Counted from the stretch's first letter, positions 14,023-34,287 are shown. The stretch is 64,000 nt of DNA from an uncultured Alphaproteobacteria bacterium (GCA_902601455.1 CACKNC010000007.1:3537-67536), one strand, 5' to 3'. Numbers and translations are program-made. Notes: generated from the letters alone by a model not told the origin.

Positions 14023-17573
<3,551 letters not shown>

Positions 17574-17585
17574 AAAAATATTATT

Positions 17586-18812
17586 TTGAATACAATTCTC
17601 TTAGTAAACTTAATAAAAATAAGATGGTTAGCAATATTTGGACAATTTACAACTCTGTTAATAATAAACTTTTTATTCAGTTTTAATATCCCACTTTTTG
17701 AATGTTTTATTGTTGTATTTTTATCAATTATTATAAATTTGTATTCATTATATACTCAAAAAAATAATCCTACATTAAGTTATGAAAAAACCTTTACATT
17801 TCTGTTATTTGATATCTCTCAATTAGTTGCATTATTATATTTAACAGGTGGTGTTTTTAATCCATTTATAATATTGATTTTAGCACCCATTATAATTTCT
17901 GCATCCTATTTGCCAGCTTTGTGGACAATTATTTTATCTTCATATTCCATTGTACTAATTTTATTAATCAATTATTTTTTTGTTCCTTTGGATTGGAATC
18001 AAAGTTTTGTTACACCAGCAATTTATAAAACTGGGATAATATTAGCATTAATTATTACAATTATATTTGTTGCAATATATGCTTACTTATTTGCAAGTTC
18101 ATCTAGAAGAATATCTGAAGCATTATCTGAAACAAAACTCAAATTATCTAATCAAAAAAAAACTACCGAAGTTGCTTATCTAAGTGCCGCTGCAGTACAT
18201 GAATTGAGCACACCACTTAATACAATATTTTTAGTGTTAAATGATTTAATCAAAGAAGAAGTCTTTCATAAGGAGTCTTATTTAATGAAAGATATTGAGT
18301 TGTTAAAATCACAAGCAGAAAGATGTAAAGAAATACTATTAAGATTGTCTAAAAATCCAGATAATCTAAAAGACAATTTTTTAGAGAAAGTAAAAATAGT
18401 TGATTTAATAAAAATAAATTTTGAAAAATTTAATAATGGAAAAAAGTTTAATATTTGTTTCAAAAATTTTAATAAAGAATATCAAATTCTTTTTAAAGAT
18501 GAAATAAATTATGCACTGAGTAATATAATTCAAAACTCTATACTATATTCTTCATCTAAAATTAATATAACTCTTGATACTAATAAAAACGATATAGTTA
18601 TTATAATTGAAAATGATGGAGGTGGATTTTCAAGGGATGTTTTGGATAAAATTGGTGAGCCATATATATCCAAAAACAAGAAAGGCATGGGATTAGGCAT
18701 TTTTATTGCAAAAAATTTAATAGAAAATACTAGAGGGACTATAATGTTTTACAATTCATTAAATAATAATGCAGTGGTTGAAATAAAGTTTAATAAAACT
18801 ATTTTGGTATAA
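17586..18812 (+). CDS. regB: Redox sensor histidine kinase RegB/PrrB/ActS family
   Basis: Multi-TM N-terminus with GGVFNPF quinone-binding motif, HELSTPL H-box, redox Cys in QAERCKEIL, GMGLGIFIA. Confidence 0.9.
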   Translation: MNTILLVNLIKIRWLAIFGQFTTLLIINFLFSFNIPLFECFIVVFLSIIINLYSLYTQKNNPTLSYEKTFTFLLFDISQLVALLYLTGGVFNPFIILILAPIIISASYLPALWTIILSSYSIVLILLINYFFVPLDWNQSFVTPAIYKTGIILALIITIIFVAIYAYLFASSSRRISEALSETKLKLSNQKKTTEVAYLSAAAVHELSTPLNTIFLVLNDLIKEEVFHKESYLMKDIELLKSQAERCKEILLRLSKNPDNLKDNFLEKVKIVDLIKINFEKFNNGKKFNICFKNFNKEYQILFKDEINYALSNIIQNSILYSSSKINITLDTNKNDIVIIIENDGGGFSRDVLDKIGEPYISKNKKGMGLGIFIAKNLIENTRGTIMFYNSLNNNAVVEIKFNKTILV

Positions 18813-19339
18813 TGACCAATAAGTTACTTATATTAGATGATGATACTCCTTTCAGAGAAAGACTGGCTAGATCTATGGAAAAAAAAGGGTTTAATGTCAG
18901 TACCTTTGCAAGTTATAATACATGTCTTGAAAGATGTAATGAAGAATTTTTTGATTATGCAGTTATAGATATGAGGCTTGAAGATGGATCTGGATTAGAA
19001 TTAATTAAAAAATTAAAACAAGTTTCTCCAGCAACTAAATCTCTTTTATTAACTGGCTATGGAAATATAGCCACTGCAGTTGCTGCTATAAAATCTGGAG
19101 CGATAGATTATTTACCCAAGCCTGCAGAAATTGATCAAATATATGATGCCCTAACCAATTCTGACAAAATTTTACCACCACCTCCAGAAAATCCTATGAC
19201 GGCTGATAGAATTAGATGGGAACATATTCAAAGAGTGTTTACTTTATGTAATAGAAATGTATCCGAAACGGCAAGAAGACTTAGAATGCACAGAAGAACT
19301 TTACAGAGGATATTAAACAAACATGCCCCCAAAGAATAA
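18812..19339 (+). CDS. regA: Response regulator RegA/PrrA/ActR
   Basis: Receiver domain, PPPPENPMTADRIRWEHIQRV, NVSETARRLRMHRRTLQRIL. Confidence 0.96.
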   Translation: MTNKLLILDDDTPFRERLARSMEKKGFNVSTFASYNTCLERCNEEFFDYAVIDMRLEDGSGLELIKKLKQVSPATKSLLLTGYGNIATAVAAIKSGAIDYLPKPAEIDQIYDALTNSDKILPPPPENPMTADRIRWEHIQRVFTLCNRNVSETARRLRMHRRTLQRILNKHAPKE

Positions 19340-19342
19340 TAA

Positions 19343-20266
19343 CTAACTATTAACTAATTTTAAAAAAATATCTTCAAGATCATTTTCATAAGTATTAATT
19401 TCATCAAAATATATTTCATTTTTATTTAAAATATTAATTATACTGTTTAACGAGGTTTGATTTTTATCATATGATATGTGCAAATTCCCATCTTCAATTT
19501 TTGGATTATATTTAAGCATTTCATCAGGTATTTTTTTTATATAATTTATTTGAAAAACAACAGTTTTGTTGGACATCAGTTTTAATAAATTACTTTTTGT
19601 ATCATCTTTGATTACTTTTCCATTATTAATTATAGTAATTTTATCACAAAGCTCCTCTGCTTCCTCTAAATAATGAGTTGTTAGGCAAATTGTTGTACCT
19701 TGCTTATTAATTTTTTTAATGTACTCCCAAAGTGATCTTCTTAATTCTACATCAACTCCGGCAGTTGGCTCATCTAAAATTAACATTTCTGGAGAATGGA
19801 CTAACGCTTTAGCTACAAGCAATCTTCTTCTCATTCCCCCAGACAATGTTCTAGCGTAAGATTTTTTTTGATCTGTTAAACCAACATTCTCAAGTATTTC
19901 ATCAGTTATTCGATCTATTTTTTTAATACCATATAAACCTGCTTGTAACTCAAGTAGTTCATAGGGAGTGAAAAATGGATCAATGTTTAACTCTTGAGGA
20001 ACAATACCTATTTTAAATTTACTTTTTTTAGTTTCAACATCAGTATTTAGTCCACATATATTTATTTTTCCACTATCTTTTTTAACGAGACTACCTAGAA
20101 TATTTATAAAAGTTGATTTTCCAGCTCCATTTGGTCCTAATAATCCATGAATGGAACCTTTTTTAATTTGAATATTAAAATCTTTTAGAGCTACTATCTC
20201 TTTATTTTTTTTTTTAAAAGTCTTATTAACTTCTTTTGCTTCTATTGAGTAAATATAATCTGACAT
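19343..20266 (-). CDS. ABC-2 type transporter ATP-binding protein (YadG-like)
   Basis: GPNGAGKST, LSGGMRRR, LILDEPTAGVD, LTTHYLEEAE; no permease adjacent. Confidence 0.9.
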   Translation of the reverse strand: MSDYIYSIEAKEVNKTFKKKNKEIVALKDFNIQIKKGSIHGLLGPNGAGKSTFINILGSLVKKDSGKINICGLNTDVETKKSKFKIGIVPQELNIDPFFTPYELLELQAGLYGIKKIDRITDEILENVGLTDQKKSYARTLSGGMRRRLLVAKALVHSPEMLILDEPTAGVDVELRRSLWEYIKKINKQGTTICLTTHYLEEAEELCDKITIINNGKVIKDDTKSNLLKLMSNKTVVFQINYIKKIPDEMLKYNPKIEDGNLHISYDKNQTSLNSIINILNKNEIYFDEINTYENDLEDIFLKLVNS

Positions 20267-20298
20267 TTTTTTTAATTCTCTATATATTTAAAAATGAA

Positions 20299-23040
20299 AT
20301 GAATAAACAAAATAGATTAATCTTAATTGATGGATCAGCATACATATTTAGAGCTTACTATGGCTTACCGCCTATGAATAGAGCTGATGGAACACCAATT
20401 AATGCAGTTTTTGGTTTTACAAATATGCTAGTAAAGTTGATAGAGGATTATAGAGATGATAAAATGATTGTTATTTTTGATGCCGCAAGAGAAAATTTCA
20501 GAAACAAAATATTTAAAGATTATAAAGCAAATAGAGGTGAAACACCTGAGGATTTAATTCCTCAATTTGAAATAATTAGAGAGTGTGTAGATGCATTTAA
20601 TATTCCACAATTAGAAATTGAGGGATATGAGGCTGATGATATTATAGCAACTTATTGCAAGCTAGCTGAAGAGCAAAAAATTGACTCAATTATTGTCTCT
20701 TCAGATAAAGATTTAATGCAATTAGTTACAAAAGACACAACAATGCTTGATCCAATGAAAAATAAAAAAATTGGCATAGATCAAGTTATTGAAAAATTTG
20801 GTTTACCTCCAAATAAGGTAATTCAAATTCAGGCTTTAACTGGTGATAAAGTCGATAATATTCCTGGAGCACCAGGAATAGGCCCTAAGACAGCTTTGCA
20901 ACTTATTCAAGAATTTGGTGATGTACATAAATTAATTAAAAAAGCTGATCAAATTCCACAGGAAAAAAGAAGAAATATAATATTAGATAATAAAGAAGAT
21001 ATTTTGGTAAGTCTTGAATTAGTTAAACTGAAAAATGATATTAAATTACCTAAAGATATAAATGTAATTCATACTTATTCTTCAATAAATAAAAATGAAA
21101 ATTTATCTAACTTCTTATCAAACCAAGGCTTTAAAAGTATAGCTGAAAGGTTAAAAAACAATTCATTTTTAAAAAGTAATATCTCTGAAAAATTAGAAAC
21201 AAAAAAAATAGATAATAAATATTTTTTAATTAACAACAGTAAAGATTTAAATAAGTTAATTTCACTCATAAAAAAAACTGGTTACTTTGCAATTGATACA
21301 GAGACCAATTCTTTAAATATTGAAGAGGCTAATTTAGTAGGTGTATCAATTGCTATTAATGAAAGCTCAGCTTATTACATTCCAGTAAATCATAAAAATA
21401 TAGAAAATAATAAAAGATTGAATGAGCAAATAAAAGAATCTGAACTAGTTAAATCACTTCAACCAATTTGCAAGGATCCATCCATATTAAAAATAGGACA
21501 TAACATTAAATATGATCTTAGAATTCTGGAGAAATATGATCTGAAATTAAAATCCATAGCTGATACCATGTTGTTATCATACGCAATTGATAATGGTATT
21601 ACAAAACACAACATGGATGATTTAGCTTACTTACATTTTAATCACACAAATATAAAATTTAAGGAAATTGTTGGATCAGGAAAAAAAGAAATAACATTTG
21701 ATTTTGTAGAAATTAATAAAGCTCTTAATTATGCTGCTGAAGATGCTCTTATAACGTTAAGGTTATATAATTTTTTAAACAATAGAATTAAAAATGAAAA
21801 AGGCAATTTTGTTTATAATGAAATTGATTTACCATTAATATATGTTTTGTCTTCAATTGAAAAAAATGGAATTAAAGTAAATACTAAATATCTTAATCAA
21901 TTAAGTCAGGAGTTCCAAAAAGATAGTCTAGTATTAGAAAAAAAAATTTACAAATTTGCAGGAAAAAATTTTAATATTGGATCTCCAAAACAATTAGGAG
22001 AAATTCTATTTGTTGATTTAAACATTAAGGGAGGAAAAAAAACTAAATCAGGAACTTTCTCTACAGACTCTTCAACATTGTTAAGCTTATCTGATCAAGG
22101 TTATGAAATTGCTAGTTTAATTTTAGATTGGAGAGAGTTAACTAAATTGAAATCGACCTACACAGATGCCTTACAAAATCAAGCAACAAAAAATAATTCA
22201 AGAGTCCATACTTCTTACGGAGTCGCAAATACTCTTACTGGAAGATTGAGTTCAAATGATCCAAATCTTCAAAATATACCCATAAGAACAAGCAATGGAA
22301 GAAAGATTAGAAAAGCATTTATCTGTGAACCAAATAAAATTCTCATGAGTTTTGATTATTCACAAATAGAACTTCGTTTAGCTGCAGAAATTTCTGGAGA
22401 TACAAATTTTATAAAGGCTTTTAAAAATAACGAAGATATTCACAGCTCAACTGCTTCTCAAATTTTTAATGTTAAAACTGAAAAACTTGATGCAGAAATG
22501 AGAAGAAAGGCAAAAGCAATAAATTTCGGTATTTTGTATGGAATAAGCCCTTACGGATTAGCTAAACAGTTGAGTGTAACAAATTCTGAAGCAAAGAATT
22601 ATATTGAAGATTATTTTAACAAATATCCGAAAATTAAAAAATATATGGATGATCAAATTCAATTTGCAAAAACAAATTTATATGTTGAAACAATATTTGG
22701 TAGAAGATGTAATATTAAAAGCATTAATGATAAAAATTTTTCCGTCAGAGGTTTCGCTGAGAGGCAAGCAATTAATGCTCCCATTCAAGGAACAGCAGCA
22801 GATATAATTAAATTAGCAATGATTGAATTAAACAAGATGATAATTTCTGATGATTTAAATGCTAAAATCTTGCTTCAAGTCCATGATGAACTTATTTTTG
22901 AAATTGATCAAGCTAATAAAGAGGTTTCAATAGATAAGATTAAAAACGTAATGGAAAATATACATCTTAGTTTTAAAAATTTTGATGTACCTCTTTTAGT
23001 TGATTATGGTTTTGGAGATAACTGGGGTGATGCTCACTAG
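20299..23040 (+). CDS. polA: DNA polymerase I
   Basis: LIDGSAYIFRAY 5'-3' exonuclease, AIDTET/GHNIKYD/YAAEDA proofreading motifs, DYSQIELR, RRKAKAINFGILYG, QVHDEL; true start most likely ATG 20299, not 20236. Confidence 0.98.
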   Translation: MNKQNRLILIDGSAYIFRAYYGLPPMNRADGTPINAVFGFTNMLVKLIEDYRDDKMIVIFDAARENFRNKIFKDYKANRGETPEDLIPQFEIIRECVDAFNIPQLEIEGYEADDIIATYCKLAEEQKIDSIIVSSDKDLMQLVTKDTTMLDPMKNKKIGIDQVIEKFGLPPNKVIQIQALTGDKVDNIPGAPGIGPKTALQLIQEFGDVHKLIKKADQIPQEKRRNIILDNKEDILVSLELVKLKNDIKLPKDINVIHTYSSINKNENLSNFLSNQGFKSIAERLKNNSFLKSNISEKLETKKIDNKYFLINNSKDLNKLISLIKKTGYFAIDTETNSLNIEEANLVGVSIAINESSAYYIPVNHKNIENNKRLNEQIKESELVKSLQPICKDPSILKIGHNIKYDLRILEKYDLKLKSIADTMLLSYAIDNGITKHNMDDLAYLHFNHTNIKFKEIVGSGKKEITFDFVEINKALNYAAEDALITLRLYNFLNNRIKNEKGNFVYNEIDLPLIYVLSSIEKNGIKVNTKYLNQLSQEFQKDSLVLEKKIYKFAGKNFNIGSPKQLGEILFVDLNIKGGKKTKSGTFSTDSSTLLSLSDQGYEIASLILDWRELTKLKSTYTDALQNQATKNNSRVHTSYGVANTLTGRLSSNDPNLQNIPIRTSNGRKIRKAFICEPNKILMSFDYSQIELRLAAEISGDTNFIKAFKNNEDIHSSTASQIFNVKTEKLDAEMRRKAKAINFGILYGISPYGLAKQLSVTNSEAKNYIEDYFNKYPKIKKYMDDQIQFAKTNLYVETIFGRRCNIKSINDKNFSVRGFAERQAINAPIQGTAADIIKLAMIELNKMIISDDLNAKILLQVHDELIFEIDQANKEVSIDKIKNVMENIHLSFKNFDVPLLVDYGFGDNWGDAH

Positions 23041-23276
23041 AAATCTTCTTCAAAAGAATTTCTTTCTAACCATTTTTCTAATTCGTGATAACCACCTATG
23101 CTCTCTCCATTTATTATTATTTGAGGAAAAGTTCTAGCTGTAGGAAATTTGTTAAAGAAATCTTCTCTAGTATAATCTTGATCAAGCATATGAATTTTAG
23201 GATTTTCATTTGCTAAACGCATTTTAGCTTTGTCACAAAAGATACAATTAGTTTTGGAATATATTTCTACGTCCAT
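23037..23276 (-). CDS. Dithiol glutaredoxin associated with RNR
   Basis: YSKTNCIFC active site, RTFPQI cis-Pro motif, IGGY; directly downstream of nrdB. Confidence 0.92.
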   Translation of the reverse strand: MDVEIYSKTNCIFCDKAKMRLANENPKIHMLDQDYTREDFFNKFPTARTFPQIIINGESIGGYHELEKWLERNSFEEDF

Positions 23277-24266
23277 CTAAAAAGCATCATCAAAACTAAG
23301 AGCCCTATCAGTTGGTCTTTGATATTCGGAAACTCTTTTTTCAAAAAAGTTAGTTACATTTTGTACATCTAATGCTCTCATAAAATCAAATGGATTCTCA
23401 GTATTAAATACTCTTTCAAATTCAAATAAATCTGCAATTCTATCGGCTACCGCCTCAATATATTGGCACATTAAATCTTCATTCATACCAATTAAGTCAA
23501 CTGGAAGTGCGTCTTTAACAAATTCTTTTTCAAATGATACAGCTTCTTTTACTATTTCTTCAAATTGTGATTGAGGTACATCATTTGGTATTAATGATAA
23601 GTCAGATATATCGCTATTAGTTAATGTATTGTTATTAAACTTATCTCTAAGCGTTTTAAACATAAGTGCTGAAAAGCTAAAATGCATTCCTTCATCTCTT
23701 GCAATCCAATCATTAGATAGTGCTAAGCCTGGAAGAAGACCTCTTTTTCTAAAATAATAAATAGCGCAAAATGAGCCAGCAAAAAACAAACCTTCAACTA
23801 AACCAAAACCAATAAGTCTTGTTAATAAATTTTGACTTCCATTAAGCCACTTAGAAACCCATTGGGCTTTACGATTTATACAGGGAACATTTTGAATAGC
23901 ATCAAAAAGATGATCTTTTTCTTTTTGATCTTTAACATATGCTTCAATCTGTAGACCATACATTTCAGCATGAATAGATTCATTAAGCATTTGCATAGAA
24001 ATAAAACATCTTGCTTCTGGTATTAAAATTTCTTTATAAAACCTACTTGCGAGGTTTTCGTTAATCATTGCTTCAGAATTCGCAAAATAAGCCAGTACAT
24101 GTTTTATAAAGTGTTTTTCTCCATCATTAAGTGTTTCTAAATCTCTTAGGTCATCATGCAGAGATACTTCTTCTGGTGTCCAAAATGCTTGTATATGAAG
24201 CTTATACTTATCCCAAATATCTTGATGTTTTATTGGAAAAATTGATTTAACGCCTTTTGATATCAT
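23277..24266 (-). CDS. nrdB: Class I ribonucleotide reductase beta subunit (R2), eukaryote-like type
   Basis: FWTPEEV, E65, ESIH (E96/H99), Y103, VEGLFF (E158), RDEGMH (E192/H195), NFFEKRVSEYQ. Confidence 0.96.
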   Translation of the reverse strand: MISKGVKSIFPIKHQDIWDKYKLHIQAFWTPEEVSLHDDLRDLETLNDGEKHFIKHVLAYFANSEAMINENLASRFYKEILIPEARCFISMQMLNESIHAEMYGLQIEAYVKDQKEKDHLFDAIQNVPCINRKAQWVSKWLNGSQNLLTRLIGFGLVEGLFFAGSFCAIYYFRKRGLLPGLALSNDWIARDEGMHFSFSALMFKTLRDKFNNNTLTNSDISDLSLIPNDVPQSQFEEIVKEAVSFEKEFVKDALPVDLIGMNEDLMCQYIEAVADRIADLFEFERVFNTENPFDFMRALDVQNVTNFFEKRVSEYQRPTDRALSFDDAF

Positions 24267-24279
24267 TATTTATACTCCT

Positions 24280-27048
24280 TTATGCACTACAAGTTAGACA
24301 ATCTTCTGGTTCATTATTTTCTGCTACTTGAGATTTGATAAAATCTTCTTTTGCAACTTTTTCTGAAGAAACGGTTACTTTAACTGCATCAACAGCAGAT
24401 CTACTTCTTAAATAATACATTCCAGTTTTAAGACCTTTTTTCCAAGCATACATATGCATTGAATTTACTTTTCCAAATGTTGGAGTGGATAACCATAAAT
24501 TCATTGATTGAGTTTGATCTATAAATGGTGCTCTATCTGCAGCCATATCAATCACTGATTTTTGTGAGGTTTCCCAAACAGTCTTATATGTTTCCTTAAG
24601 ATCATCAGGAAAATTTGAAATATTTTGAACTGATCCATTTTCTAAAATTATCTTATCTCTCATTTCTTTGTTCCATAGTTTTCTTTTTGATAAAGCTTTC
24701 ACTAAATGTCTATTAACTAATAAAAACTCACCAGATAATGTTTGTCTTTTATATATGTTAGAAGTTTGAATTTGGAATGTCTCAGTGTTTCCTAAAATTA
24801 TACCAGTAGATGCTGTTGGCATACATGCTGTAGTTAGTGAATTTCTAACACCATCCTTTTTTATTTTCTCCCTTAAAGTTTCCCAATCCCACATATCAGA
24901 AGGATTTGTATTCCACATATCAAACTGAAATTTACCTTCAGACAAAGGGGATCCTTCAAATGTTGAATAGGGACCTTTCTCTTTAGCAAGTTCATGGGAT
25001 GCTTCTAAAGCACCAAAATATATTGTTTCAAATATGAGTTTATTTATTTCTTTAGCCTCTTCACTATCATAAGCTATTTCAAGTTCGAAAAAAACATCAG
25101 CCAGTCCTTGAATACCAAGCCCTATGGGTCTGTGTTTGCTATTAGAGGTTTTAGTTTTATTTGTTGGATAAAAATTAATATCTATAACTTCATCTAAATT
25201 TTTAGTAGCTAATTTTGCAGTTCTATAAAGTGCTTTATAATCATATTCTTTTTTCTTACTTTTTGATTGTTTTATAAATTTTGGAAGTGCGATGGATGCT
25301 AAGTTACAAACCGATGTTTCAGACTTATCTGAATATTCAACTATTTCAGCACATAAGTTAGAGGATTTAATTACACCAATATTTTTTTGATTAGATTTGT
25401 TGTTAATTGAATCCTTATAAAGCATATAAGGTTGTCCAGTTTCAATTTGAGCCTCTATAATTTTAGACATTAGATCTCTAGCTTTTATTTTTTCTAGATG
25501 AACTATCTCTTTTTCGTACTTTTCATATAGTTTGACAAACTCATCACCATAAGCATCAGATAATCCAGGACATTCATGTTCACTCATTAAAGTCCAATCA
25601 CCATCGTCTTCTACTCTTTTCATAAACAGATCTGGTATCCAAAGTGCATAAAATAAGTCTCTTGCCCTAAATTCTTCTGCACCTGTATTTTTCCTTAACT
25701 CTAGGAATTGCTCAATATCCGCATGCCAAGGTTCAAGATACACAGCAAAAGAACCTTTTCTTTTTCCACCACCTTGATCAACTGACTTTGCTGTTTCATT
25801 AAAGATTTTTAAGAATGGAATAAGTCCGTTTGATTTACCATTTGTAGATTTTATTCTACTACCACTCCCCCTAATGTTGTGTGCATGCATTCCAATTCCA
25901 CCTGCAGTTTTTGAAATGAGAGCACAGTCTTTAATAGTATTAAAAATACCTTCTATTGAGTCATCCTCCATACCAATTAAAAAGCATGATGATAATTGTT
26001 GCATTTTTAGTCCACTATTAAACAATGTGGGCGTTGCATGTGTATAATATCCATTAGAAAGACTGTCATAAGTTTCTTTTACTTTATCAAAATTAAAAGT
26101 GTCTCCAGAAACTGTTAGAGCTACTCGCATCCATAAGTCTTGAGGACGTTCAATAGTCTTATTTTCAAACTTTAAAAGATAAGCTCTGATTAAAGTAGTA
26201 AAAGCAAAATAGTCAAAATTATAATCTCTGTCGTAATCAATTATAGATTCGATATTCTCAGCGCTCGCCATGACTTTGTTGTAATATTCTTCTCTTAGTA
26301 GACCATCATCAAAAAGGTTTTTTGTGGCAATAATAAAACCAGGTGTGTCTTTATGCAGTGAATTTGCTTTTATTCTTGCTGCTAAATAAGAGTAATCTGG
26401 ATGTTCAACGGTAAGAGATGCCGCTGTTTCAGCAAGATAAGTATCAATCTCTGTAGAGGTAATTTCGTTATATAGGCCTGGTACTGCTTTCTGGACTACA
26501 ACAATTGGATCTATGTTTAGTCCTGTTGAAAGGACTGAAACTCTATTTGTTATTTTATCAAGAGATATAGCTTCTTTATCACCATTTCTTTTGGTCACAG
26601 TCATTGAAGATGCTTTTGCACCTACTTGCTCTTTCAGTTTTTTTGTATGGTATCTGGATGCTGCACGTTGCTCTCGATATAAAACATAAGCCCTTGCCAC
26701 CTTGTGATGCTCATCTCTCATTAAAGCTAGTTCAACCTGATCTTGAATATCCTCGATATGAATCATATCACCATCAGCTATTCTTCTCGTTAATGCAGAA
26801 ACAACTTTATGTGTCAGGTTTTCAACGGTTTTATGGATACTATCCTCTTGCTCTTTTTCTTGAGTTTTACTATTTCTAATCTTTGTTTGTGCTAAGAAAG
26901 CCTTTTTTATCGCATCTGATATCTTATCTGCTTTAAATGAACTTATAGATCCCTCTCTTCTCACCACATTGAGACTTAATAAGTTGACACTTTCTTCTTC
27001 CTTTTTTAATGATACCTGTGAGTTGTCTGCCATTTGTAAATTATCCAT
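24280..27048 (-). CDS. nrdA: Class I ribonucleotide reductase alpha subunit (R1) with two N-terminal ATP cones
   Basis: HATPTLFN, LSSCFL, SSNLCAEI, VCNLAS, MPTAST, GMYYLR, C-terminal CLTC; all catalytic residues present. Confidence 0.97.
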   Translation of the reverse strand: MDNLQMADNSQVSLKKEEESVNLLSLNVVRREGSISSFKADKISDAIKKAFLAQTKIRNSKTQEKEQEDSIHKTVENLTHKVVSALTRRIADGDMIHIEDIQDQVELALMRDEHHKVARAYVLYREQRAASRYHTKKLKEQVGAKASSMTVTKRNGDKEAISLDKITNRVSVLSTGLNIDPIVVVQKAVPGLYNEITSTEIDTYLAETAASLTVEHPDYSYLAARIKANSLHKDTPGFIIATKNLFDDGLLREEYYNKVMASAENIESIIDYDRDYNFDYFAFTTLIRAYLLKFENKTIERPQDLWMRVALTVSGDTFNFDKVKETYDSLSNGYYTHATPTLFNSGLKMQQLSSCFLIGMEDDSIEGIFNTIKDCALISKTAGGIGMHAHNIRGSGSRIKSTNGKSNGLIPFLKIFNETAKSVDQGGGKRKGSFAVYLEPWHADIEQFLELRKNTGAEEFRARDLFYALWIPDLFMKRVEDDGDWTLMSEHECPGLSDAYGDEFVKLYEKYEKEIVHLEKIKARDLMSKIIEAQIETGQPYMLYKDSINNKSNQKNIGVIKSSNLCAEIVEYSDKSETSVCNLASIALPKFIKQSKSKKKEYDYKALYRTAKLATKNLDEVIDINFYPTNKTKTSNSKHRPIGLGIQGLADVFFELEIAYDSEEAKEINKLIFETIYFGALEASHELAKEKGPYSTFEGSPLSEGKFQFDMWNTNPSDMWDWETLREKIKKDGVRNSLTTACMPTASTGIILGNTETFQIQTSNIYKRQTLSGEFLLVNRHLVKALSKRKLWNKEMRDKIILENGSVQNISNFPDDLKETYKTVWETSQKSVIDMAADRAPFIDQTQSMNLWLSTPTFGKVNSMHMYAWKKGLKTGMYYLRSRSAVDAVKVTVSSEKVAKEDFIKSQVAENNEPEDCLTCSA

Positions 27049-27073
27049 TATTATAAATTTTTATTGTCGAAAA

Positions 27074-27120
27074 ACACAATATGTAGTGTCGCCGTTTATA
27101 GACAATACAACATTTGGTCA
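27074..27120. promoter_or_regulatory. Tandem NrdR boxes upstream of nrdA
   Basis: ACACAATATGTAGTGT (27074-27089) closely fits the acaCwAtATaTwGtgt consensus; weaker ATACAACATTTGGTCA (27105-27120) lies 31 bp away, typical tandem spacing. Confidence 0.88.
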
Positions 27121-27132
27121 ATATCGCAATAA

Positions 27133-27147
27133 GAACAAAACATGAAC
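27133..27147. promoter_or_regulatory. Alphaproteobacterial LexA (SOS) box
   Basis: GAAC-AAAACAT-GAAC, an exact GAAC-N7-GAAC (GTTC-N7-GTTC on the nrdA strand), just upstream of a candidate -35 TTGCGA (minus strand, 27124-27129). Confidence 0.7.
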
Positions 27148-27323
27148 ATTAATATAATTCATGTTTATGTCAAACTCTATATTTAATTAAATTTTGATTT
27201 ATTCAAACAAGTAATTGAATTTAATAGATTAAGTTATTAACCTAAGTCACACTTTGTTAGATTATTTATAAATGTAAAAAAAAAATAACTTAAATTTGCC
27301 ATAAAATACTTATAAACTAAGCT

Positions 27324-28037
27324 ATGCCCACAATAGCTTTAGTTGATGATGAGAACTCGATTCGTACATCTGTTTCTTTAGCCTTAGAATCTGAGGGATT
27401 TAAGGTTGATGTTTTTCAAAATGGTGTTGAGGCCTTAGAAGCCCTAGAGTCTAAAAGTTATGATTTGGGTTTGTTTGATATAAAAATGCCGAAAATGGAT
27501 GGTAACGAACTTTTAACAAAGGTTCGATCTAGTAAAAATGATGACTTAAAAAAAATGCCAATTATTTTTTTAACTTCAAAAGATCAGGAACAGGATGAAA
27601 TCATTGGCTTACGAATGGGAGCAGCAGATTATATAACAAAACCTTTTTCTCAAAAACTATTGAACGAAAGAATAAGAACAGTTTTGAGAGTTTATCAAAA
27701 CAGAAAATTGCCTATTAATAATGATAATTCAGATTTAAAAAATTTAAAAAAAGGCAATCTAGAACTAGATGATTTAAAACAGCTTTGTTACTGGAAAAAT
27801 CAAATAGTTGAACTGACTGTCGCAGAATTTAACTTGATAAAATCATTAGCTAAATATCCTGGTGTCGTTAAAGATAGAAATCAATTAATGGATACTATGT
27901 ATGGAGACAATATTTACGTAGACGATAGAACAATTGACAGTCACATAAAAAGATTGAGAAAAAAATTTAAATCTTATGATCCAGAGTTTGATCAAATTCG
28001 CACCAGATATGGATCAGGTTATTCATGGCGTGAATAA
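27324..28037 (+). CDS. chvI: OmpR-family response regulator ChvI
   Basis: MPTIALVDD, DIKMPKMDG, GAADYITKPFSQ, YVDDRTIDSHIKRLRKKF. Confidence 0.94.
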   Translation: MPTIALVDDENSIRTSVSLALESEGFKVDVFQNGVEALEALESKSYDLGLFDIKMPKMDGNELLTKVRSSKNDDLKKMPIIFLTSKDQEQDEIIGLRMGAADYITKPFSQKLLNERIRTVLRVYQNRKLPINNDNSDLKNLKKGNLELDDLKQLCYWKNQIVELTVAEFNLIKSLAKYPGVVKDRNQLMDTMYGDNIYVDDRTIDSHIKRLRKKFKSYDPEFDQIRTRYGSGYSWRE

Positions 28038-29697
28038 CTATCGAAAAATAGCTTTATATAATTTACCTTTATCGATACAAATTTTAGCGATAAATTTATT
28101 TATCACCTGTATTGGTTTTATTATTTTAATCTTTTTCAATTTTTTTTTAATTAATAATGATGATACAATTCAAATAAAAAAAATTAATGCAGATCAAGAT
28201 TTGAAAAAAATTCAATCTTTTCTTGAAAAAAATGCAATTATAAGAGTTCCTGTTTTTGATGAAACCTGTGCAGGTCAAAATAATCAATCATGTGAAGATG
28301 AAAATAATCTTCAACTATCTGACCCTATTCTTGAGCCAAAAATTACACAAGAATTTATCCTAAATAATTTTTTAAATACTGAATATGATATTAAGATTTA
28401 TAATGATGAGTGGATAAGACTCGTTGATACTCAAGACTTGTACGAGATATCAATTGTTGAGGAAGTAGATATAAAGGAAGTTCAGGCTGATGATAACAAT
28501 GTAAATTTATATCAATACTTAACTCAAAAATATCTAAGTCTTTTTTCCTCTTACCATAATTTTATAATTAAGAGACAGTTTGAGGAAATTAAAACATTAA
28601 AAAAAGCAGAAATCTCTTATGTTTCACAAAGCATAAAAGATAGGACTGATAAAGAATACATTGTGTTAAATAGTGAAAATGTTCTATATCAATACCTAAC
28701 GTTACCTATCATAAGTAATGGTAAAGTATATGGTGTTGTAATTTTTAGTTATACTGTTCTAAATCAGTATTCAGGCTTGGGTTTAATTTCTCTAAACATA
28801 TTTATTTTTTACATTTTATTTGTTTTAATAATGATTTTTATGTCTCTTATATTTTCACAAAGTTTGGTTACCCCAATTAAAAGGTTATCAAAATTGACTA
28901 TTCTTGAAAGAGAGAGAGTTAATAAAAATGAAATAACATATCCTCAAAGAGAAGATGAAATAGGTACACTTTCTAAAGAAATACAAAATATGTCAATGGG
29001 ATTGAAATTACAAATTGAACAGTTGGAAAAATTTAGCGCCGATGTTTCTCATGAATTAAAAAATCCTTTAACTAGCCTGCAATCTGCTATTGATTTGATC
29101 GATACAAATAATGTTACAGCAGATAAAAAAAAGCTATTAATAAATAATATTAAGAATGATTTAAAGAGAATGAATCAACTGATAACTGATATTTCAAACT
29201 TTACTAGGTTAAAGGCTGAAATTGAATTAGAAAAAAATGAATATATAAAATTAAATAATTTTTTTGATGAAATTCCGAAAATTTTTACAAATAATAATAA
29301 AAGAGTAAAATTAATTTTTAAGAAATATACTGAAAATTTGAAGATATTAGCTAATAAAGATAAGTTGACACAAGTTTTTATAAATTTAATTGATAACAGT
29401 ATTTCACTATCTCCCGAAGGATCTAAAATTTTAGTAGAATTAGATAAATTTGATGAAAAGTTTATTTCTCTTAGGTTTTATGATCAGGGTAAAGGAATTG
29501 ATTTAAAGGATTCAGAAAAAATATTTGAAAGATTTTATAGTGATAGACAAGAAGACATAAAAAATCACACTGGTCTTGGTTTATCTATAGCTAGGGAAAT
29601 AATTGGTCACATGAAAGGTAAGATTTCTTTGGATAAGTCAAATAAAAGTGATTATCCTGGTGCTTGTTTTTTAATAATTTTACCTATAAAACAATGA
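28030..29697 (+). CDS. chvG: Sensor histidine kinase ChvG/ExoS
   Basis: Two TM helices around a periplasmic domain, HAMP (REDEIGTLS), FSADVSHELKNPLTS, IFERFYSDR, GLGLSI; likely GTG start at 28030 overlapping chvI. Confidence 0.88.
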   Translation: MNNYRKIALYNLPLSIQILAINLFITCIGFIILIFFNFFLINNDDTIQIKKINADQDLKKIQSFLEKNAIIRVPVFDETCAGQNNQSCEDENNLQLSDPILEPKITQEFILNNFLNTEYDIKIYNDEWIRLVDTQDLYEISIVEEVDIKEVQADDNNVNLYQYLTQKYLSLFSSYHNFIIKRQFEEIKTLKKAEISYVSQSIKDRTDKEYIVLNSENVLYQYLTLPIISNGKVYGVVIFSYTVLNQYSGLGLISLNIFIFYILFVLIMIFMSLIFSQSLVTPIKRLSKLTILERERVNKNEITYPQREDEIGTLSKEIQNMSMGLKLQIEQLEKFSADVSHELKNPLTSLQSAIDLIDTNNVTADKKKLLINNIKNDLKRMNQLITDISNFTRLKAEIELEKNEYIKLNNFFDEIPKIFTNNNKRVKLIFKKYTENLKILANKDKLTQVFINLIDNSISLSPEGSKILVELDKFDEKFISLRFYDQGKGIDLKDSEKIFERFYSDRQEDIKNHTGLGLSIAREIIGHMKGKISLDKSNKSDYPGACFLIILPIKQ

Positions 29698-29757
29698 TCA
29701 AAACTACATTAACCAAAACTAATTAAAGTAATTTTATAGAAGAAATAGGATTTAAAA

Positions 29758-31047
29758 ATGAGTCAAGATTATAAAGTAAAAGATATGGAGCTAGCTGAAT
29801 GGGGTCTAAAAGAAATTGCTATAGCTGAGACAGAAATGCCTGGATTAATGGCTCTCAGAGAAGAATACGGTGATAGTAAACCTCTTGAAGGCGCAAGAAT
29901 AGTTGGTTGTCTTCATATGACAATTCAAACTGCTGTACTTATTGAAACTTTAGTCCATCTTGGCGCCTCAGTTAGATGGAGTTCCTGCAACATCTTCTCA
30001 ACTCAAGATCAGGCTGCAGCAGCAATAGCCTCAAAAAACATACCAGTATTTGCATGGAAAGGAATGTCGGACGAAGAATTTTGGTGGTGCATAGAACAAA
30101 CACTAACTGGCCCAAATGGTTGGAAACCTAACATGATATTAGATGATGGTGGAGATGCCACTCAAATTATTCACGAAAAGTACCCAGAGCTTTTAGATGA
30201 TATAAGAGGTCTTTCAGAGGAAACTACTACAGGCGTTCTAAGGTTAAAAGAAATGCAAAAAAAAGGGTCGCTCAAGGTGCCTGCAATAAATGTTAATGAC
30301 TCAGTAACTAAATCTAAATTTGATAATTTATACGGATGTAAAGAAAGTCTAGTTGATGGAATTAGAAGAGGTACTGATGTAATGATGGCAGGTAAAGTTG
30401 CTGTTGTTGCTGGTTATGGAGATGTGGGAAAAGGTTCTGCGGCTAGCTTAAGAGGAGCAGGTGCCAGAGTTTGTGTCACTGAAATTGATCCAATTAATGC
30501 TTTGCAAGCAGCAATGGAAGGCTATGAAGTTGTCACAATGGATGATGCAGCTTCTTATGGAGATATTTTTGTAACTGCCACAGGTAATGTGGATGTTATA
30601 ACTCTTGATCATATGAGAAAGATGCATGATAGAGCAATTGTTTGTAATATTGGGCATTTTGATAATGAGATTCAAACTGAGGCTTTAAGAAACTACAAAT
30701 CTCATGAAGTCAAACCTCAGGTAAGAGAAGTGGAGTTTCCTGATGGTAAAAAAATATTACTATTATCCGAAGGTCGTCTTGTTAACTTAGGAAATGCAAC
30801 AGGTCATCCAAGTTTTGTAATGAGTGCTTCTTTTTCAAACCAAGTAATTGCGCAGATTGAACTTTGGGAAAATTATAAAAATTATGAAAATAAAGTTTAT
30901 GTTCTTCCCAAAAATTTAGATGAAAAAGTTGCTGCATTGCATTTGAAAAAGGTGGGAGCAAAACTTACAGAGCTTAGTGAAAAACAAGCTGAATATATTG
31001 GAGTAAGCAAAGTTGGCCCTTTCAAAGATGAAACTTACAGATATTAG
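29758..31047 (+). CDS. ahcY: Adenosylhomocysteinase
   Basis: [58 protein letters not shown]. Confidence 0.98.
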
Positions 31048-31056
31048 GAGGAAAGT

Positions 31057-32223
31057 ATGAGACCTTATTTATTTACAAGTGAGTCAGTATCAGAAGGACA
31101 TCCAGATAAAGTTTGCGATAGAATTTCAGATATGGTCGTTGATACTTATTTATCATCAGGTGATCCACAAACTCGAGTTGCATGTGAGACTCTTACCACG
31201 ACTAACAAAGTAGTTTTAGCAGGAGAAGTAAGAGGGCCGTCAATTTCAAAAGATCAAATTATATCTCAAGTTAGAGATTGTATTAAGGACATTGGGTATG
31301 AACAAGATGGTTTTCATTGGCAAAATTGTGATATTGATAGTTTTCTCCATGAACAATCATCTGATATTGCCATGGGAGTTGACTCAGGTAGTGATAAGGA
31401 AGAGGGTGCAGGTGATCAAGGGATTATGTTTGGATATGCATGCCGTGATACTGAAAGTTTAATGCCCGCTCCAATTCATTACTCACATCAAATTTTATAT
31501 AAAATGGCTCAAGCAAGAAAAAATGGATCAGCCCCTGGTTTAGAGCCAGACTCAAAAAGCCAAGTAACGATGCTTTATGAAAATGGGAAACCTAGTAAAG
31601 TTACCTCTCTAGTAATTTCATCGCAACATAAAGAGGGTTTATCTCCATCTGATGTTAAAGAAATAGTAAAACCTTATGTTTATGAATGTATACCTAATGA
31701 ATTACTTGAAGGATTAAAAGAAGAGGAATTTTATGTTAACCCAACTGGAAATTTTGTAATTGGAGGTCCTGATGGTGACTCGGGTTTAACAGGTAGAAAA
31801 ATCATTGTTGACACTTATGGAGGTGCTGCACCTCATGGAGGAGGAGCGTTCTCTGGTAAAGATCCATCTAAAGTCGATAGATCAGCAGCCTATGCATCTA
31901 GATATTTAGCTAAGAATATTGTTGCGGCTAATCTTGCTGATGAATGTACAATTCAATTATCTTATGCAATTGGTGTTTCAAAACCATTATCTGTTTATGT
32001 AAATACCAATGGAACTAATAAAGTTGATGAACAAAAAATTGAAAAATCTGTTCAGGATTTATTTGATTTAAGTCCAAGAGGAATAAGAGAACATTTAAAA
32101 CTTACCAATGCTATTTATGTTCCAACTTCAGCTTACGGCCATTTTGGAAGAGAGTCAACTGACCAAGGTCATTTTACATGGGAGAAAACTGATTTAGTCG
32201 ACTCTCTAAAAAATTTACTTTAA
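31057..32223 (+). CDS. metK: S-adenosylmethionine synthetase
   Basis: [57 protein letters not shown]. Confidence 0.98.
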
Positions 32224-32226
32224 AGT

Positions 32227-32685
32227 TTGCAAAAAGAGATTCTTAACTTAAATTTAGAAGGCCTAAAAAAATTTTGTGAAGAAGTATCTCTATATTTAAA
32301 AAAAGGCGATATAATTTGTCTTTCGGGTGATTTAGGATCAGGTAAAACTACATTTTCTAGGTATTTAATAAATTCAATTTACCAAAATCAAAATAAAGAA
32401 CCGCCTAATACTATTAAAAGTCCATCATTTCCAATTTTATTAACCTATGAGTTAAATAATTTTGAAATATATCACTATGATCTTTATCGAGTTTCAAAAA
32501 GCAGTGACTTAATTAATTTAAATATATTCGAAGAGCTAAATAATTCAATTACGTTAGTAGAATGGCCTGGAACTTTACTAGATTCATTACAAAATTATAA
32601 TTATTTTTCTATTCATTTTGATATCCTTGATGAAAATATAAGAAGTTTGAAACACAATTTAATCTTTAGTAAAAATGAAATTTGA
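32227..32685 (+). CDS. tsaE: tRNA threonylcarbamoyladenosine biosynthesis ATPase
   Basis: LSGDLGSGKTT, SPSF, YHYDLYR, LVEWP. Confidence 0.92.
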   Translation: MQKEILNLNLEGLKKFCEEVSLYLKKGDIICLSGDLGSGKTTFSRYLINSIYQNQNKEPPNTIKSPSFPILLTYELNNFEIYHYDLYRVSKSSDLINLNIFEELNNSITLVEWPGTLLDSLQNYNYFSIHFDILDENIRSLKHNLIFSKNEI

Positions 32686-33598
32686 TTTAAGTGAATTATA
32701 TCAAATAGAAAGTGGGGCATCTCAGAAAAAAATTTATAGGTTTAAAAATCACGATAAACAAGGTGTTTTTGTTGATTTTTCGTATAACAATAAAGATTAT
32801 CATTCGTTTTTAGAAGTAAACAAATTCTTATCAACCATAAATATATCTGTTCCAAAAATATTTGACATTGATGATAGTAAAAATTTAATTTTAATGGAAG
32901 ATTTTGGCAATAATAGATATGATAAGATAATAAGCAGCATAAATTTAAAGGAAGTTTTGTTAAATTCAATTAACTCCTTAATTGAAATTCAAAATACTAG
33001 TCAGCAAATAACTAACTATAATTTAAACACATACAACTTTTCTTCATTTAAAATAGAGATAGCTGAATTTGCAGATTTTTACTTACCTTTTAAAAATATT
33101 AGTAAATCAATTACAGATGAATTTTTTTTTATTTGGTATTCTGAGTTTGAAAATTTAAACTTTAATTGGAATTCTTTTGTTCACAAAGATTTTGAGCTTT
33201 CAAATCTCATGTATCTACAAAATAGAAAAGAACATCTAAAGTGTGGTATCCTTGATTATCAAAATGCATTTATCGGTTTCTCTGGTTGGGATATGTTTTC
33301 TTTATTGGAAAATCCACGAATATATTTTGTTGATAAATATAATGATGAATTAATTGAATATTTTTATAATAATACCAGTCAAAATATTTCTTTTGATGAA
33401 TTTTTAACTCAATATTATTTTCTAAATACTGCTAGGCAATCTAGAATTATTGGAAGATGGATAAACTTAGATAAAAAAAATAAAAATTATAATTACTCAA
33501 AGTATCTCAATATAACAACTAAAAGACTTAAAAAAAGTTTACATTACCTTCAAAACCAAAAACTATCTAAACTATACAGTAAAGTAATAACTGAATGA
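32675..33598 (+). CDS. APH-fold sugar kinase, AmgK-like (divergent)
   Basis: GASQKKIYR, LMEDFG, HKDFELSNL, ILDYQNA; tsaE-kinase-nucleotidyltransferase synteny. Confidence 0.75.
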   Translation: MKFDLSELYQIESGASQKKIYRFKNHDKQGVFVDFSYNNKDYHSFLEVNKFLSTINISVPKIFDIDDSKNLILMEDFGNNRYDKIISSINLKEVLLNSINSLIEIQNTSQQITNYNLNTYNFSSFKIEIAEFADFYLPFKNISKSITDEFFFIWYSEFENLNFNWNSFVHKDFELSNLMYLQNRKEHLKCGILDYQNAFIGFSGWDMFSLLENPRIYFVDKYNDELIEYFYNNTSQNISFDEFLTQYYFLNTARQSRIIGRWINLDKKNKNYNYSKYLNITTKRLKKSLHYLQNQKLSKLYSKVITE

Positions 33599-34287
33599 CT
33601 AGTTTTAATTTAATGATATTAGCTGCTGGATATGGAAAGCGAATGAATAACTTAACTCATTCGATTCCAAAACCATTGTTGAAAATAAATAATAAAGAAC
33701 TTCTTAGACACAATATAGATTTTTTTACAAATTTAGGTTGTAAAAAAATAATAATCAATACTCATTATCTTCATGACAAAATTCAACATTGTATAGAGAG
33801 TTACTATTCAGATAGAAATATAATATTAAGTTATGAGCCTACCTTATTAAACACTGGAGGCGGAATCAAGAATGCTTTGTGCTTTTTAGGAAATAATAAT
33901 TTTATTGTTACTAATTCTGATATTTTATGGAAAGATAACAACAGTGCAGATGTTTTAAAATTTATAAATAATTATCAACAGATAGAAACATGTAAGTTAT
34001 TACTAGCTAATGATAATAATTTTGAAGGTTTAAAAAAGTCAGAAGGTGACTTTAAGTATGAAGATAATTTAGTTACAAGGTGGAAAAAAAATGACCCATA
34101 TTTATTTTACACTGGTCTGCAAATAATTAATCCTAATATTTTTAAATTAATAGAAGAGGTTTCTTTTTCTTTAAATAAATTATGGGACTTGCTTATATCT
34201 AAAGACAGCCTTCAAGGAGAAATTTCTCGTTCTAAAATAGCTCATATAGGAGATATAAATGCATTCAATCAATTTAAGGATAACTGA
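33595..34287 (+). CDS. Nucleotidyltransferase, MurU-like
   Basis: MILAAGYGKRM, PKPLL, INTHYL, LNTGGGIKNAL, NSDILW. Confidence 0.8.
   Translation: MTSFNLMILAAGYGKRMNNLTHSIPKPLLKINNKELLRHNIDFFTNLGCKKIIINTHYLHDKIQHCIESYYSDRNIILSYEPTLLNTGGGIKNALCFLGNNNFIVTNSDILWKDNNSADVLKFINNYQQIETCKLLLANDNNFEGLKKSEGDFKYEDNLVTRWKKNDPYLFYTGLQIINPNIFKLIEEVSFSLNKLWDLLISKDSLQGEISRSKIAHIGDINAFNQFKDN

Follow-up and report, generated by a model that had tools for sequence, protein, structure and literature searches.

A probable chimera of an NrdAz-type ATP-cone and a eukaryote-type ribonucleotide reductase alpha subunit in the HIMB59 order of Alphaproteobacteria

Two ATP-cones are found in 13 % of class I ribonucleotide reductases (RNRs) (PMC4390871), and there are competing accounts of how enzymes with more than one cone arose. 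For Pseudomonas aeruginosa NrdA, an RNR of the NrdAz group, a second cone was proposed to have been recruited once its predecessor had decayed, whereas PMC9669993, which summarises that proposal, favours duplication as the likely origin, deems recruitment unlikely and sees little evidence of cone transfer. In that account, inner cones are degenerate and the eukaryote-type alpha subunits, NrdAe, mostly have a single cone. NrdAe and the partner beta subunit NrdBe were transferred from eukaryotes to Bacteroidetes, and the available portion of the source (PMC3019208) does not mention a two-cone form. In the NrdBi protein of Leeuwenhoekiella blandensis, a cone that has moved to another protein still oligomerises through helices 3 and 4 (PMC5794259). 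Here we describe an nrdA gene with two ATP-cones in a 64,000 nt stretch of DNA, referred to as the window, from an uncultured Alphaproteobacteria bacterium (GCA_902601455.1 CACKNC010000007.1:3537-67536). The genome containing the window is 86 % complete, and its host is read as a member of the HIMB59/AEGEAN-169 order of small-genome ocean bacteria.

Sequence comparisons indicate that this NrdA is very probably a chimera, in which an NrdAz-type outer cone precedes a eukaryote-type subunit. The parts of the gene are as follows.

24280 to 27048, minus strand: nrdA, class I RNR alpha subunit with two ATP-cones and an NrdAe-type barrel, an open reading frame (ORF) of 922 amino acids.
26650 to 26973, minus strand: outer ATP-cone of the NrdAz, two-nucleotide type, amino acids 26-133.
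26605 to 26649, minus strand: inter-cone linker, the putative fusion junction, amino acids 134-148, of fixed length, proline-free and predicted to extend helix 4 of the outer cone.
26602 to 26604, minus strand: codon for Met149, where single-cone relatives have their start Met; one lineage has Leu (TTA) instead.
26344 to 26604, minus strand: inner ATP-cone of the eukaryote (NrdAe) type, amino acids 149-235.
24364 to 26238, minus strand: catalytic core, amino acids 271-895, nested in NrdAe beside the single-cone enzymes of Vibrionaceae and Ichthyobacterium.

The protein has the features of a class I alpha subunit, namely a barrel with the NLCxE finger loop, resolving cysteines, a YY dyad, a C-terminal CxxC and an adjacent nrdB, and the catalytic residues are intact (C355, N564, C566, E568, C581, Y878, Y879 and C917-x-x-C920). 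Pfam recorded the ATP-cone twice (E-values of 5e-18 and 2e-12 in the genome search) together with the RNR barrel. The two cones have different best matches in the PDB. Cone 1 is closest to cone 1 of P. aeruginosa NrdA (5IM3; 77.6 bits, E-value 9e-21), followed by 5OLK (28.3 bits), and no human or yeast protein was among the six sequences found at E<=1. Cone 2 is closest to RRM1 from humans (79 bits) and yeast (66 bits), with the inner cone of 5IM3 at 29.5 bits, and the whole protein scored 935 bits with the human enzyme and 604 bits with 5IM3. Relative to 39 NrdAz proteins, cone 1 is 43-56 % identical, cone 2 is 21-32 % identical or unmatched, and the core is 39-42 % identical. Relative to NrdAe, cone 1 finds no match, and the identities are 32-57 % for cone 2 and 45-63 % for the core. 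The profile flips sharply from NrdAz-like to NrdAe-like at amino acids 133-148. In a 400-genome sample of the phylum, there were 77 matches to the outer cone, and the top five, all alphaproteobacterial, are 56-60 % identical. Among the 40 retrieved, 39 were NrdAz with a degenerate inner cone; the last matched weakly, has a single cone and gave no match to the class I barrel.

The two-cone architecture is not an assembly artefact: every one of the 115 ORFs from HIMB59 loci that match the barrel has it, and the linker is spanned by contigs in RNA libraries from two studies. The same outer plus inner arrangement was found with our own cone hidden Markov models in 121/121 proteins; both sets include repeats of one genome and were partly retrieved with a two-cone query. 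The RNA runs consist of assembled contigs only (8-17 % word share), from which start sites cannot be read, and the contigs are not proof of transcription.

Tree rows were hand-chosen for diversity and included one named eukaryote (Cocos), the human and yeast enzymes being compared by PDB search. In the cone tree (105 rows and ~95 columns, built under a mixture model and with a bootstrap that had yet to settle completely), 10 outer cones and 23 NrdAz outer cones formed one clade (support 96/87), and 10 inner cones grouped with 8 single NrdAe cones (100/84). In the core trees (127 rows, FastTree; 41 rows, IQ-TREE), sequences from HIMB59 and from a second host order, described below, came together in a single clade (100), which fell inside NrdAe in the company of Vibrionaceae and Ichthyobacterium (99). 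The NrdB tree gave the same placement, adjoining Vibrionaceae (98). Placement of the core with NrdAz was rejected by the approximately unbiased (AU) test (log-likelihood difference 334, p 5e-7). The original prediction, made from the sequence alone, was that two cones of different ancestry lie at 26344 to 26973, that the first resembles the first cone of NrdAz and that the second and the catalytic body resemble RRM1. The motifs it quoted are present, and the separate phylogenies of the cones and barrel, like the database matches, agree with it. Its proposal of an NrdAz-type cone grafted on an NrdAe enzyme is likewise supported by the separate trees and AU tests, with the donor either nested inside NrdAz or sister to it (p-AU 0.46, either fits).

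A tandem duplication of one cone, the multi-cone model of PMC9669993, or an ordinary NrdAz, would be in keeping with the NCBIfam search, where the two-cone model PRK07207 gave the top score (778 bits, under its cut-off of 965), and with a linker length that overlaps those of NrdAz. However, the AU test rejected the outer and inner cones as one clade (log-likelihood difference 115, p 5e-88), the core is not that of NrdAz, and identity switches sharply between the cones. The chance that either of these explanations is correct is negligible, and by the former test an origin by tandem duplication is refuted on the present sample.

One single-cone database protein, P0305, fell inside the HIMB59 core clade. 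Its C-terminus is HIMB59-like, but because its N-terminus is Bacteroidota-like it is probably an assembly chimera, and it was removed from later trees. We also note that the inner cones of NrdAz are placed with class I cones of the NrdAg/NrdAe type, apart from their own outer cones (100/98), which tentatively favours recruitment over duplication for NrdAz too. The branches are long and rejection of the NrdAz outer and inner cones as one clade was borderline (AU p 0.041).

To assess conservation, the 94 distinct sequences were reduced at 93 % identity to 21 representatives. Outer-cone residues were mapped via PDB alignments with inferred tag offsets, and inner-cone numbering was mapped via alignment with human RRM1. 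In P. copri NrdD (PcNrdD), K7, R8, Y83, R87 and R91 bind two molecules of deoxyadenosine triphosphate (dATP) (PMC11226230), and D73, M80, K89, I92, I93 and R95 make up the helix 3/4 interface of L. blandensis NrdB (PMC5794259). Their outer-cone equivalents are invariant or conservatively changed in 21/21 representatives, and the outer cone in the window keeps R30, R31, K42, D103, E106, M110, R119, Y124, R125, R128 and R132. In the inner cone, K153, R154, E159, D164, K165, R169, D202, H232 and K233 correspond to K5, R6, E11, D16, K17, R21, D57, H87 and K88 of human RRM1, where K5, R6, E11, K17, R21 and K88 contact the ligand. D57 is the dATP-discriminating residue of human RRM1, and the role of D16 has likewise been described (PMC5819950). 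The equivalents of K5, R6, K17, R21, D57 and H87 are present in 21/21 representatives, that of K88 in 20/21 and that of E11 in 17/21, with Q in the other 4. This retention resembles that in 59 single-cone NrdAe; in NrdAz inner cones, each ligand position is kept in at most ~5/40. The ratios of non-synonymous to synonymous substitution rates (dN/dS; 35 disjoint pairs from 90 genes) are 0.010 for the outer cone, 0.014 for the inner cone, 0.024 for the linker, 0.026 for the core and 0.24 for the N-terminal tail, and both cones are under purifying selection.

These residues suggest that both cones bind nucleotide (ATP or dATP), which we consider probable. As both keep their nucleotide-binding residues, unlike those of Pseudomonas, two working switches are likely, and the ligand residues and dN/dS support, at the level of sequence, the two potentially functional activity sites that had been predicted. 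The inner cone of P. aeruginosa NrdA binds no ligand (PMC9669993; PMC5794259), and by analogy only the outer cone here might bind nucleotide, the inner one being kept as a structural spacer. Against a spacer stand the solvent-facing Lys, Arg and Asp ligands, invariant in 21/21 representatives and mostly lost in 40 NrdAz inner cones, and a dN/dS below that of the catalytic core, and we regard this explanation as improbable.

The linker span is 31 amino acids in 20/21 representatives and includes proline in 0/21; in NrdAz it is 25-43 amino acids, with proline in 34/42. In an AlphaFold2 (AF2) model of the two-cone fragment (60-row alignment), both cones were folded, with a mean predicted local distance difference test score (pLDDT) of 83 and a predicted template modelling score (pTM) of 0.64, and helix 4 of the outer cone ran on unbroken across the linker as far as strand 1 of the inner cone. 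The modelled inner cone is within 1.2 Å of human 6AUI and the outer cone within 1.7 Å of 5OLK. In the full-length AF2 model, the pLDDT of the outer cone was under 50, because only 3/26 alignment rows were two-cone, and this model was used for the body only. The body was best matched by human RRM1, with target-normalised template modelling scores of 0.94-0.96 against eukaryotic RNRs. A complex prediction for two two-cone fragments with ATP scored 0.03 (mark 0.42) and counts neither way.

Met149 aligns with the first Met in 10/10 close single-cone relatives examined and therefore marks the fusion junction, in line with the similarity crossover at amino acids 133-148 and with the earlier claim that it was the ancestral N-terminus. 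The accompanying suggestion of a short isoform fared less well. An internal start at Met149 would give a single-cone subunit, with cells mixing one- and two-cone forms, and the residue is Met in 92/94 distinct sequences. However, it is Leu in 2/94 (codon TTA in the representative read), no Shine-Dalgarno sequence at usable spacing was seen by eye before it in the 21 representatives, and in every cone this site is taken by a hydrophobic residue of a strand. We consider such an isoform very unlikely.

Among 121 HIMB59-order genomes at least 70 % complete, 114 match the two-cone NrdA, among them 22/22 high-quality ones. A few of the 114 are fragments, and one genome, G127, has only the following.

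G127:C6:34953-36764: short distant NrdA, a 681-codon frame with 35 % identity.

Two-cone NrdAe was also found in 4/4 genomes of a second small alphaproteobacterial order (G270, G520, G410 and G535), where the core is 76-80 % and NrdB 77-81 % identical. Their nrdA is at a different locus, adjoining genes that we take, from their sequences, to be thiO/thiG-like. In an RpoB tree (FastTree, 55 rows), the two host orders were joined with one other AT-rich genome (96). This tree was flagged for composition bias, and either vertical descent or transfer may account for the shared form. In 5/5 genomes checked, three of them single-contig, the two-cone NrdA is the only match to the PF02867 barrel and the sole class I/II RNR found. 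In a sample of the class, 11/401 genomes gave a match at E<=1e-60, with often just two candidates scored per genome, and 7 were of this type.

No third lineage with a two-cone NrdAe was found in our samples, which are samples and not proof of absence. There was none among 150 library representatives (145 with one cone, 3 with none and 2 with one cone match in two pieces), 120 matches to a Vibrio query (119 with one cone, 1 with none), 80 viral loci (76 with one cone, 4 partial) or 8 viral loci retrieved with a two-cone alignment (7 NrdAz, 1 other). The 120 matches to a divergent outer cone consisted of 92 NrdAz and 28 two-cone NrdAe, the latter all HIMB59-like or second-order by core identity, and added no new lineage. 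The literature searched contained no description of a two-cone NrdAe or of a HIMB59 RNR, though Jonna 2015, Johansson 2016, Martinez-Carranza 2020 or their supplements may tabulate such proteins. The available supplement text of PMC9531940 and PMC9669993, which is short and without sequence tables, gave no match to HIMB59 or NrdAe.

Several Vibrionaceae carry a eukaryote-type single-cone nrdA-nrdB pair (L274, L275; P0273-P0293), for which no description was found in the literature search. In Photobacterium damselae, the pair is followed by glutaredoxin and has insertion sequence elements on its flanks.

The beta subunit gene and a possible regulatory site lie on either side of nrdA.

23277 to 24266, minus strand: nrdB, eukaryote-type beta subunit of 329 amino acids, 14 bp downstream of nrdA.
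27074 to 27089, no strand: NrdR-box-like palindrome just upstream of nrdA, 15/16 relative to the consensus.

NrdB is best matched in the PDB by mouse and human R2 and is NrdBe by tree as well. Its first metal ligand is Glu65 (24072-24074), a position occupied by Asp in mouse and human R2, and the radical-site Tyr103 (23958-23960) is kept, so that the Asp/Tyr pair of class Ia NrdBe (Fe2-tyrosyl radical) is replaced by Glu/Tyr. This pair is present in 64/64 distinct NrdB of the clade and in 2/2 from Vibrionaceae, and 2/2 from Bacteroidota/phage have Asp. Among 40 NrdBz, 12 Glu, 12 Phe and 28 Tyr were recorded at the metal-site positions. A Tyr/Glu pair is the mark of class Id (PMC8463856). The Lys that the characterised class Id subgroup has four residues after the Glu ligand is Asn69 here and Asn in 64/64 distinct sequences. 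The residues suggest that the enzyme may use a metal cofactor other than the usual Fe2-tyrosyl radical, and no report of the Glu/Tyr pair in NrdBe was found in the literature search.

The NrdR-box-like site is the sole match in the window, yet 17/100 shuffles also yielded one, and alone it is not significant there. With the same consensus, it is the top-scoring site genome-wide, and the score upstream of nrdA is 13-15/16 in 16 of the 21 representatives and 12/16 in the other 5. An nrdR gene is present in relatives and was not found in the window's own, 86 % complete, genome. The gene order from 15096 to 34287 is presumably gyrB-regB-regA-polA-nrdB-nrdA-chvI-chvG-ahcY-metK, the names being our own assignments from sequence. 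It is largely conserved among the five HIMB59 genomes compared, but the complete genome G037 lacks the chvI/chvG-like pair here.

The best overall explanation, to which we give slightly better than even chances, is a chimera whose outer cone would form a dATP-driven, Pseudomonas-like inhibited oligomer and whose inner cone would be a second sensor. An in-frame fusion would have placed the NrdAe/NrdBe pair of a Vibrio/Ichthyobacterium-like bacterial branch after an NrdAz-type outer cone, the simplest route being replacement of an nrdAz gene from its inner cone onward. In the ATP-bound state, alpha2 would be active together with beta2. At rising dATP levels, two dATP would load onto the outer cone, which would pair via helices 3 and 4 with the outer cone of another alpha2, giving the inhibited oligomer, the models being P. 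aeruginosa alpha4 and L. blandensis beta4 (PMC5794259). That the outer cone drives this oligomer is, in our view, marginally the better bet. The inner cone would bind one more ATP or dATP and, through what may be a rigid helical linker, could set where the outer cone lies; the switch would thereby respond to two sites that differ in stoichiometry.

A bolder version is conceivable but doubtful. The single chain would have two live activity sites that differ in type, the outer cone taking two dATP and the inner cone one, and a rigid helix would couple them into an inhibited oligomer unlike alpha4, alpha6 or alpha4beta4. The enzyme would then capture the point at which a cone had been recruited but the inner one had yet to decay, a step deemed unlikely under the duplication model. 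Its eukaryote-type beta subunit would have acquired the Glu/Tyr pair independently and perhaps uses manganese in the iron-poor surface ocean.

Several points weigh against the preferred explanation. The cone tree is short and its bootstrap unsettled, the donor may lie inside NrdAz or beside it, and no resident nrdAz was found in either host order, so in-place replacement is inferred only. G127, of the HIMB59 family and 85 % complete, gave only the short distant NrdA. The continuous linker helix may be an AF2 default, and the two modelled cones together are 18 Å root-mean-square deviation from 5IM3, the inter-cone orientation being weakly predicted (pTM 0.64). Inner-cone conservation could reflect packing on the barrel. 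In the second order, identity to the query is 44-59 % for the outer cone and 66-70 % for the inner, the outer diverging faster. On the inner cone, the helix 1/2 surface does not differ from that of its single-cone relatives, so this cone may itself be the switch that forms the oligomer.

The last two points belong to an alternative with the same chimera, where dATP switching is done by the inner cone via helix 1/2 contacts like those of the human enzyme (alpha6 or a comparable form) and the outer cone acts as an accessory nucleotide-binding module, a tuner or clamp. D16, D57 and the hydrophobic surface residues L163, I182, V/I189 and L192 are as in single-cone relatives. However, the complete helix 3/4 dimer surface of the outer cone is invariant, F15 is Leu, and R12, Q23 and M41 are lost. 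Human Met1 is in the alpha6 interface (PMC5819950), and here this position bears a 148-residue extension on a predicted rigid helix. We consider this alternative unlikely and retain the chimera with an outer-cone-driven oligomer.

HIMB59 NrdA is a clean case of one lineage's cone on another lineage's body with the inner cone undecayed, and opens to test the addition of a cone to a still-regulated enzyme and the joint action of two intact switches. With a body ~55 % identical to human RRM1, it also serves as a natural experiment on an activity site that resembles a drug target, and no other class I/II RNR was found in the checked genomes of an abundant marine clade.

Compared with P. aeruginosa NrdA (NrdAz, 5IM3), HIMB59 NrdA shares two tandem N-terminal cones, an outer cone of the same family (49 % identical), and retained residues for two dATP and the helix 3/4 dimer. 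It differs in having an inner cone, barrel (42 % identical) and beta subunit (27 %) from outside NrdAz/Bz. Its inner cone retains ligand residues where that of P. aeruginosa does not bind, and its linker is of fixed length and proline-free. Thus, of the NrdAz characters, it has the two-nucleotide outer cone, but neither a core and beta subunit within NrdAz/Bz nor a degenerate inner cone. Human RRM1/RRM2 and yeast Rnr1/Rnr2 (6AUI, 3HNF, 1ZYZ) are the best sequence and fold match for amino acids 149-922 (~54-55 % identity), and the activity-site residues of eukaryotic class Ia RNRs, including D57 and D16, are retained in the inner cone. Unlike these, HIMB59 NrdA has an extra outer cone and a partly changed alpha6 interface (F15L, R12, Q23, M41), its beta subunit has Glu for the first Asp ligand, and the genes form a bacterial operon behind an NrdR-box-like site. 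The core groups with NrdAe, but there are two cones in place of the single ATP-cone of most members (PMC9669993).

The nearest kin of the inner cone, core (63 %) and NrdB (60-61 %) are the NrdAe/NrdBe of Vibrionaceae, Ichthyobacterium and Bacteroidota. The nrdA-nrdB order is shared with Vibrio and Photobacterium and the Glu/Tyr pair with the two Vibrionaceae NrdB examined, whereas the bacterial single-cone enzymes have one cone only (119/120 matches; 1 with none). With the class Id NrdBi of L. blandensis (5OLK), it shares the transplantation of a two-dATP-type cone to another protein and the Glu/Tyr pair. In the class Id enzyme, however, beta bears the cone and alpha lacks one, and the equivalent of NrdBi Lys71 is Asn69 in HIMB59. 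The class Id Lys and cone-less alpha are both absent here, and the beta subunit best matches eukaryotic R2. HIMB59 NrdA is a real, conserved variant of known RNR regulation and not a new system.

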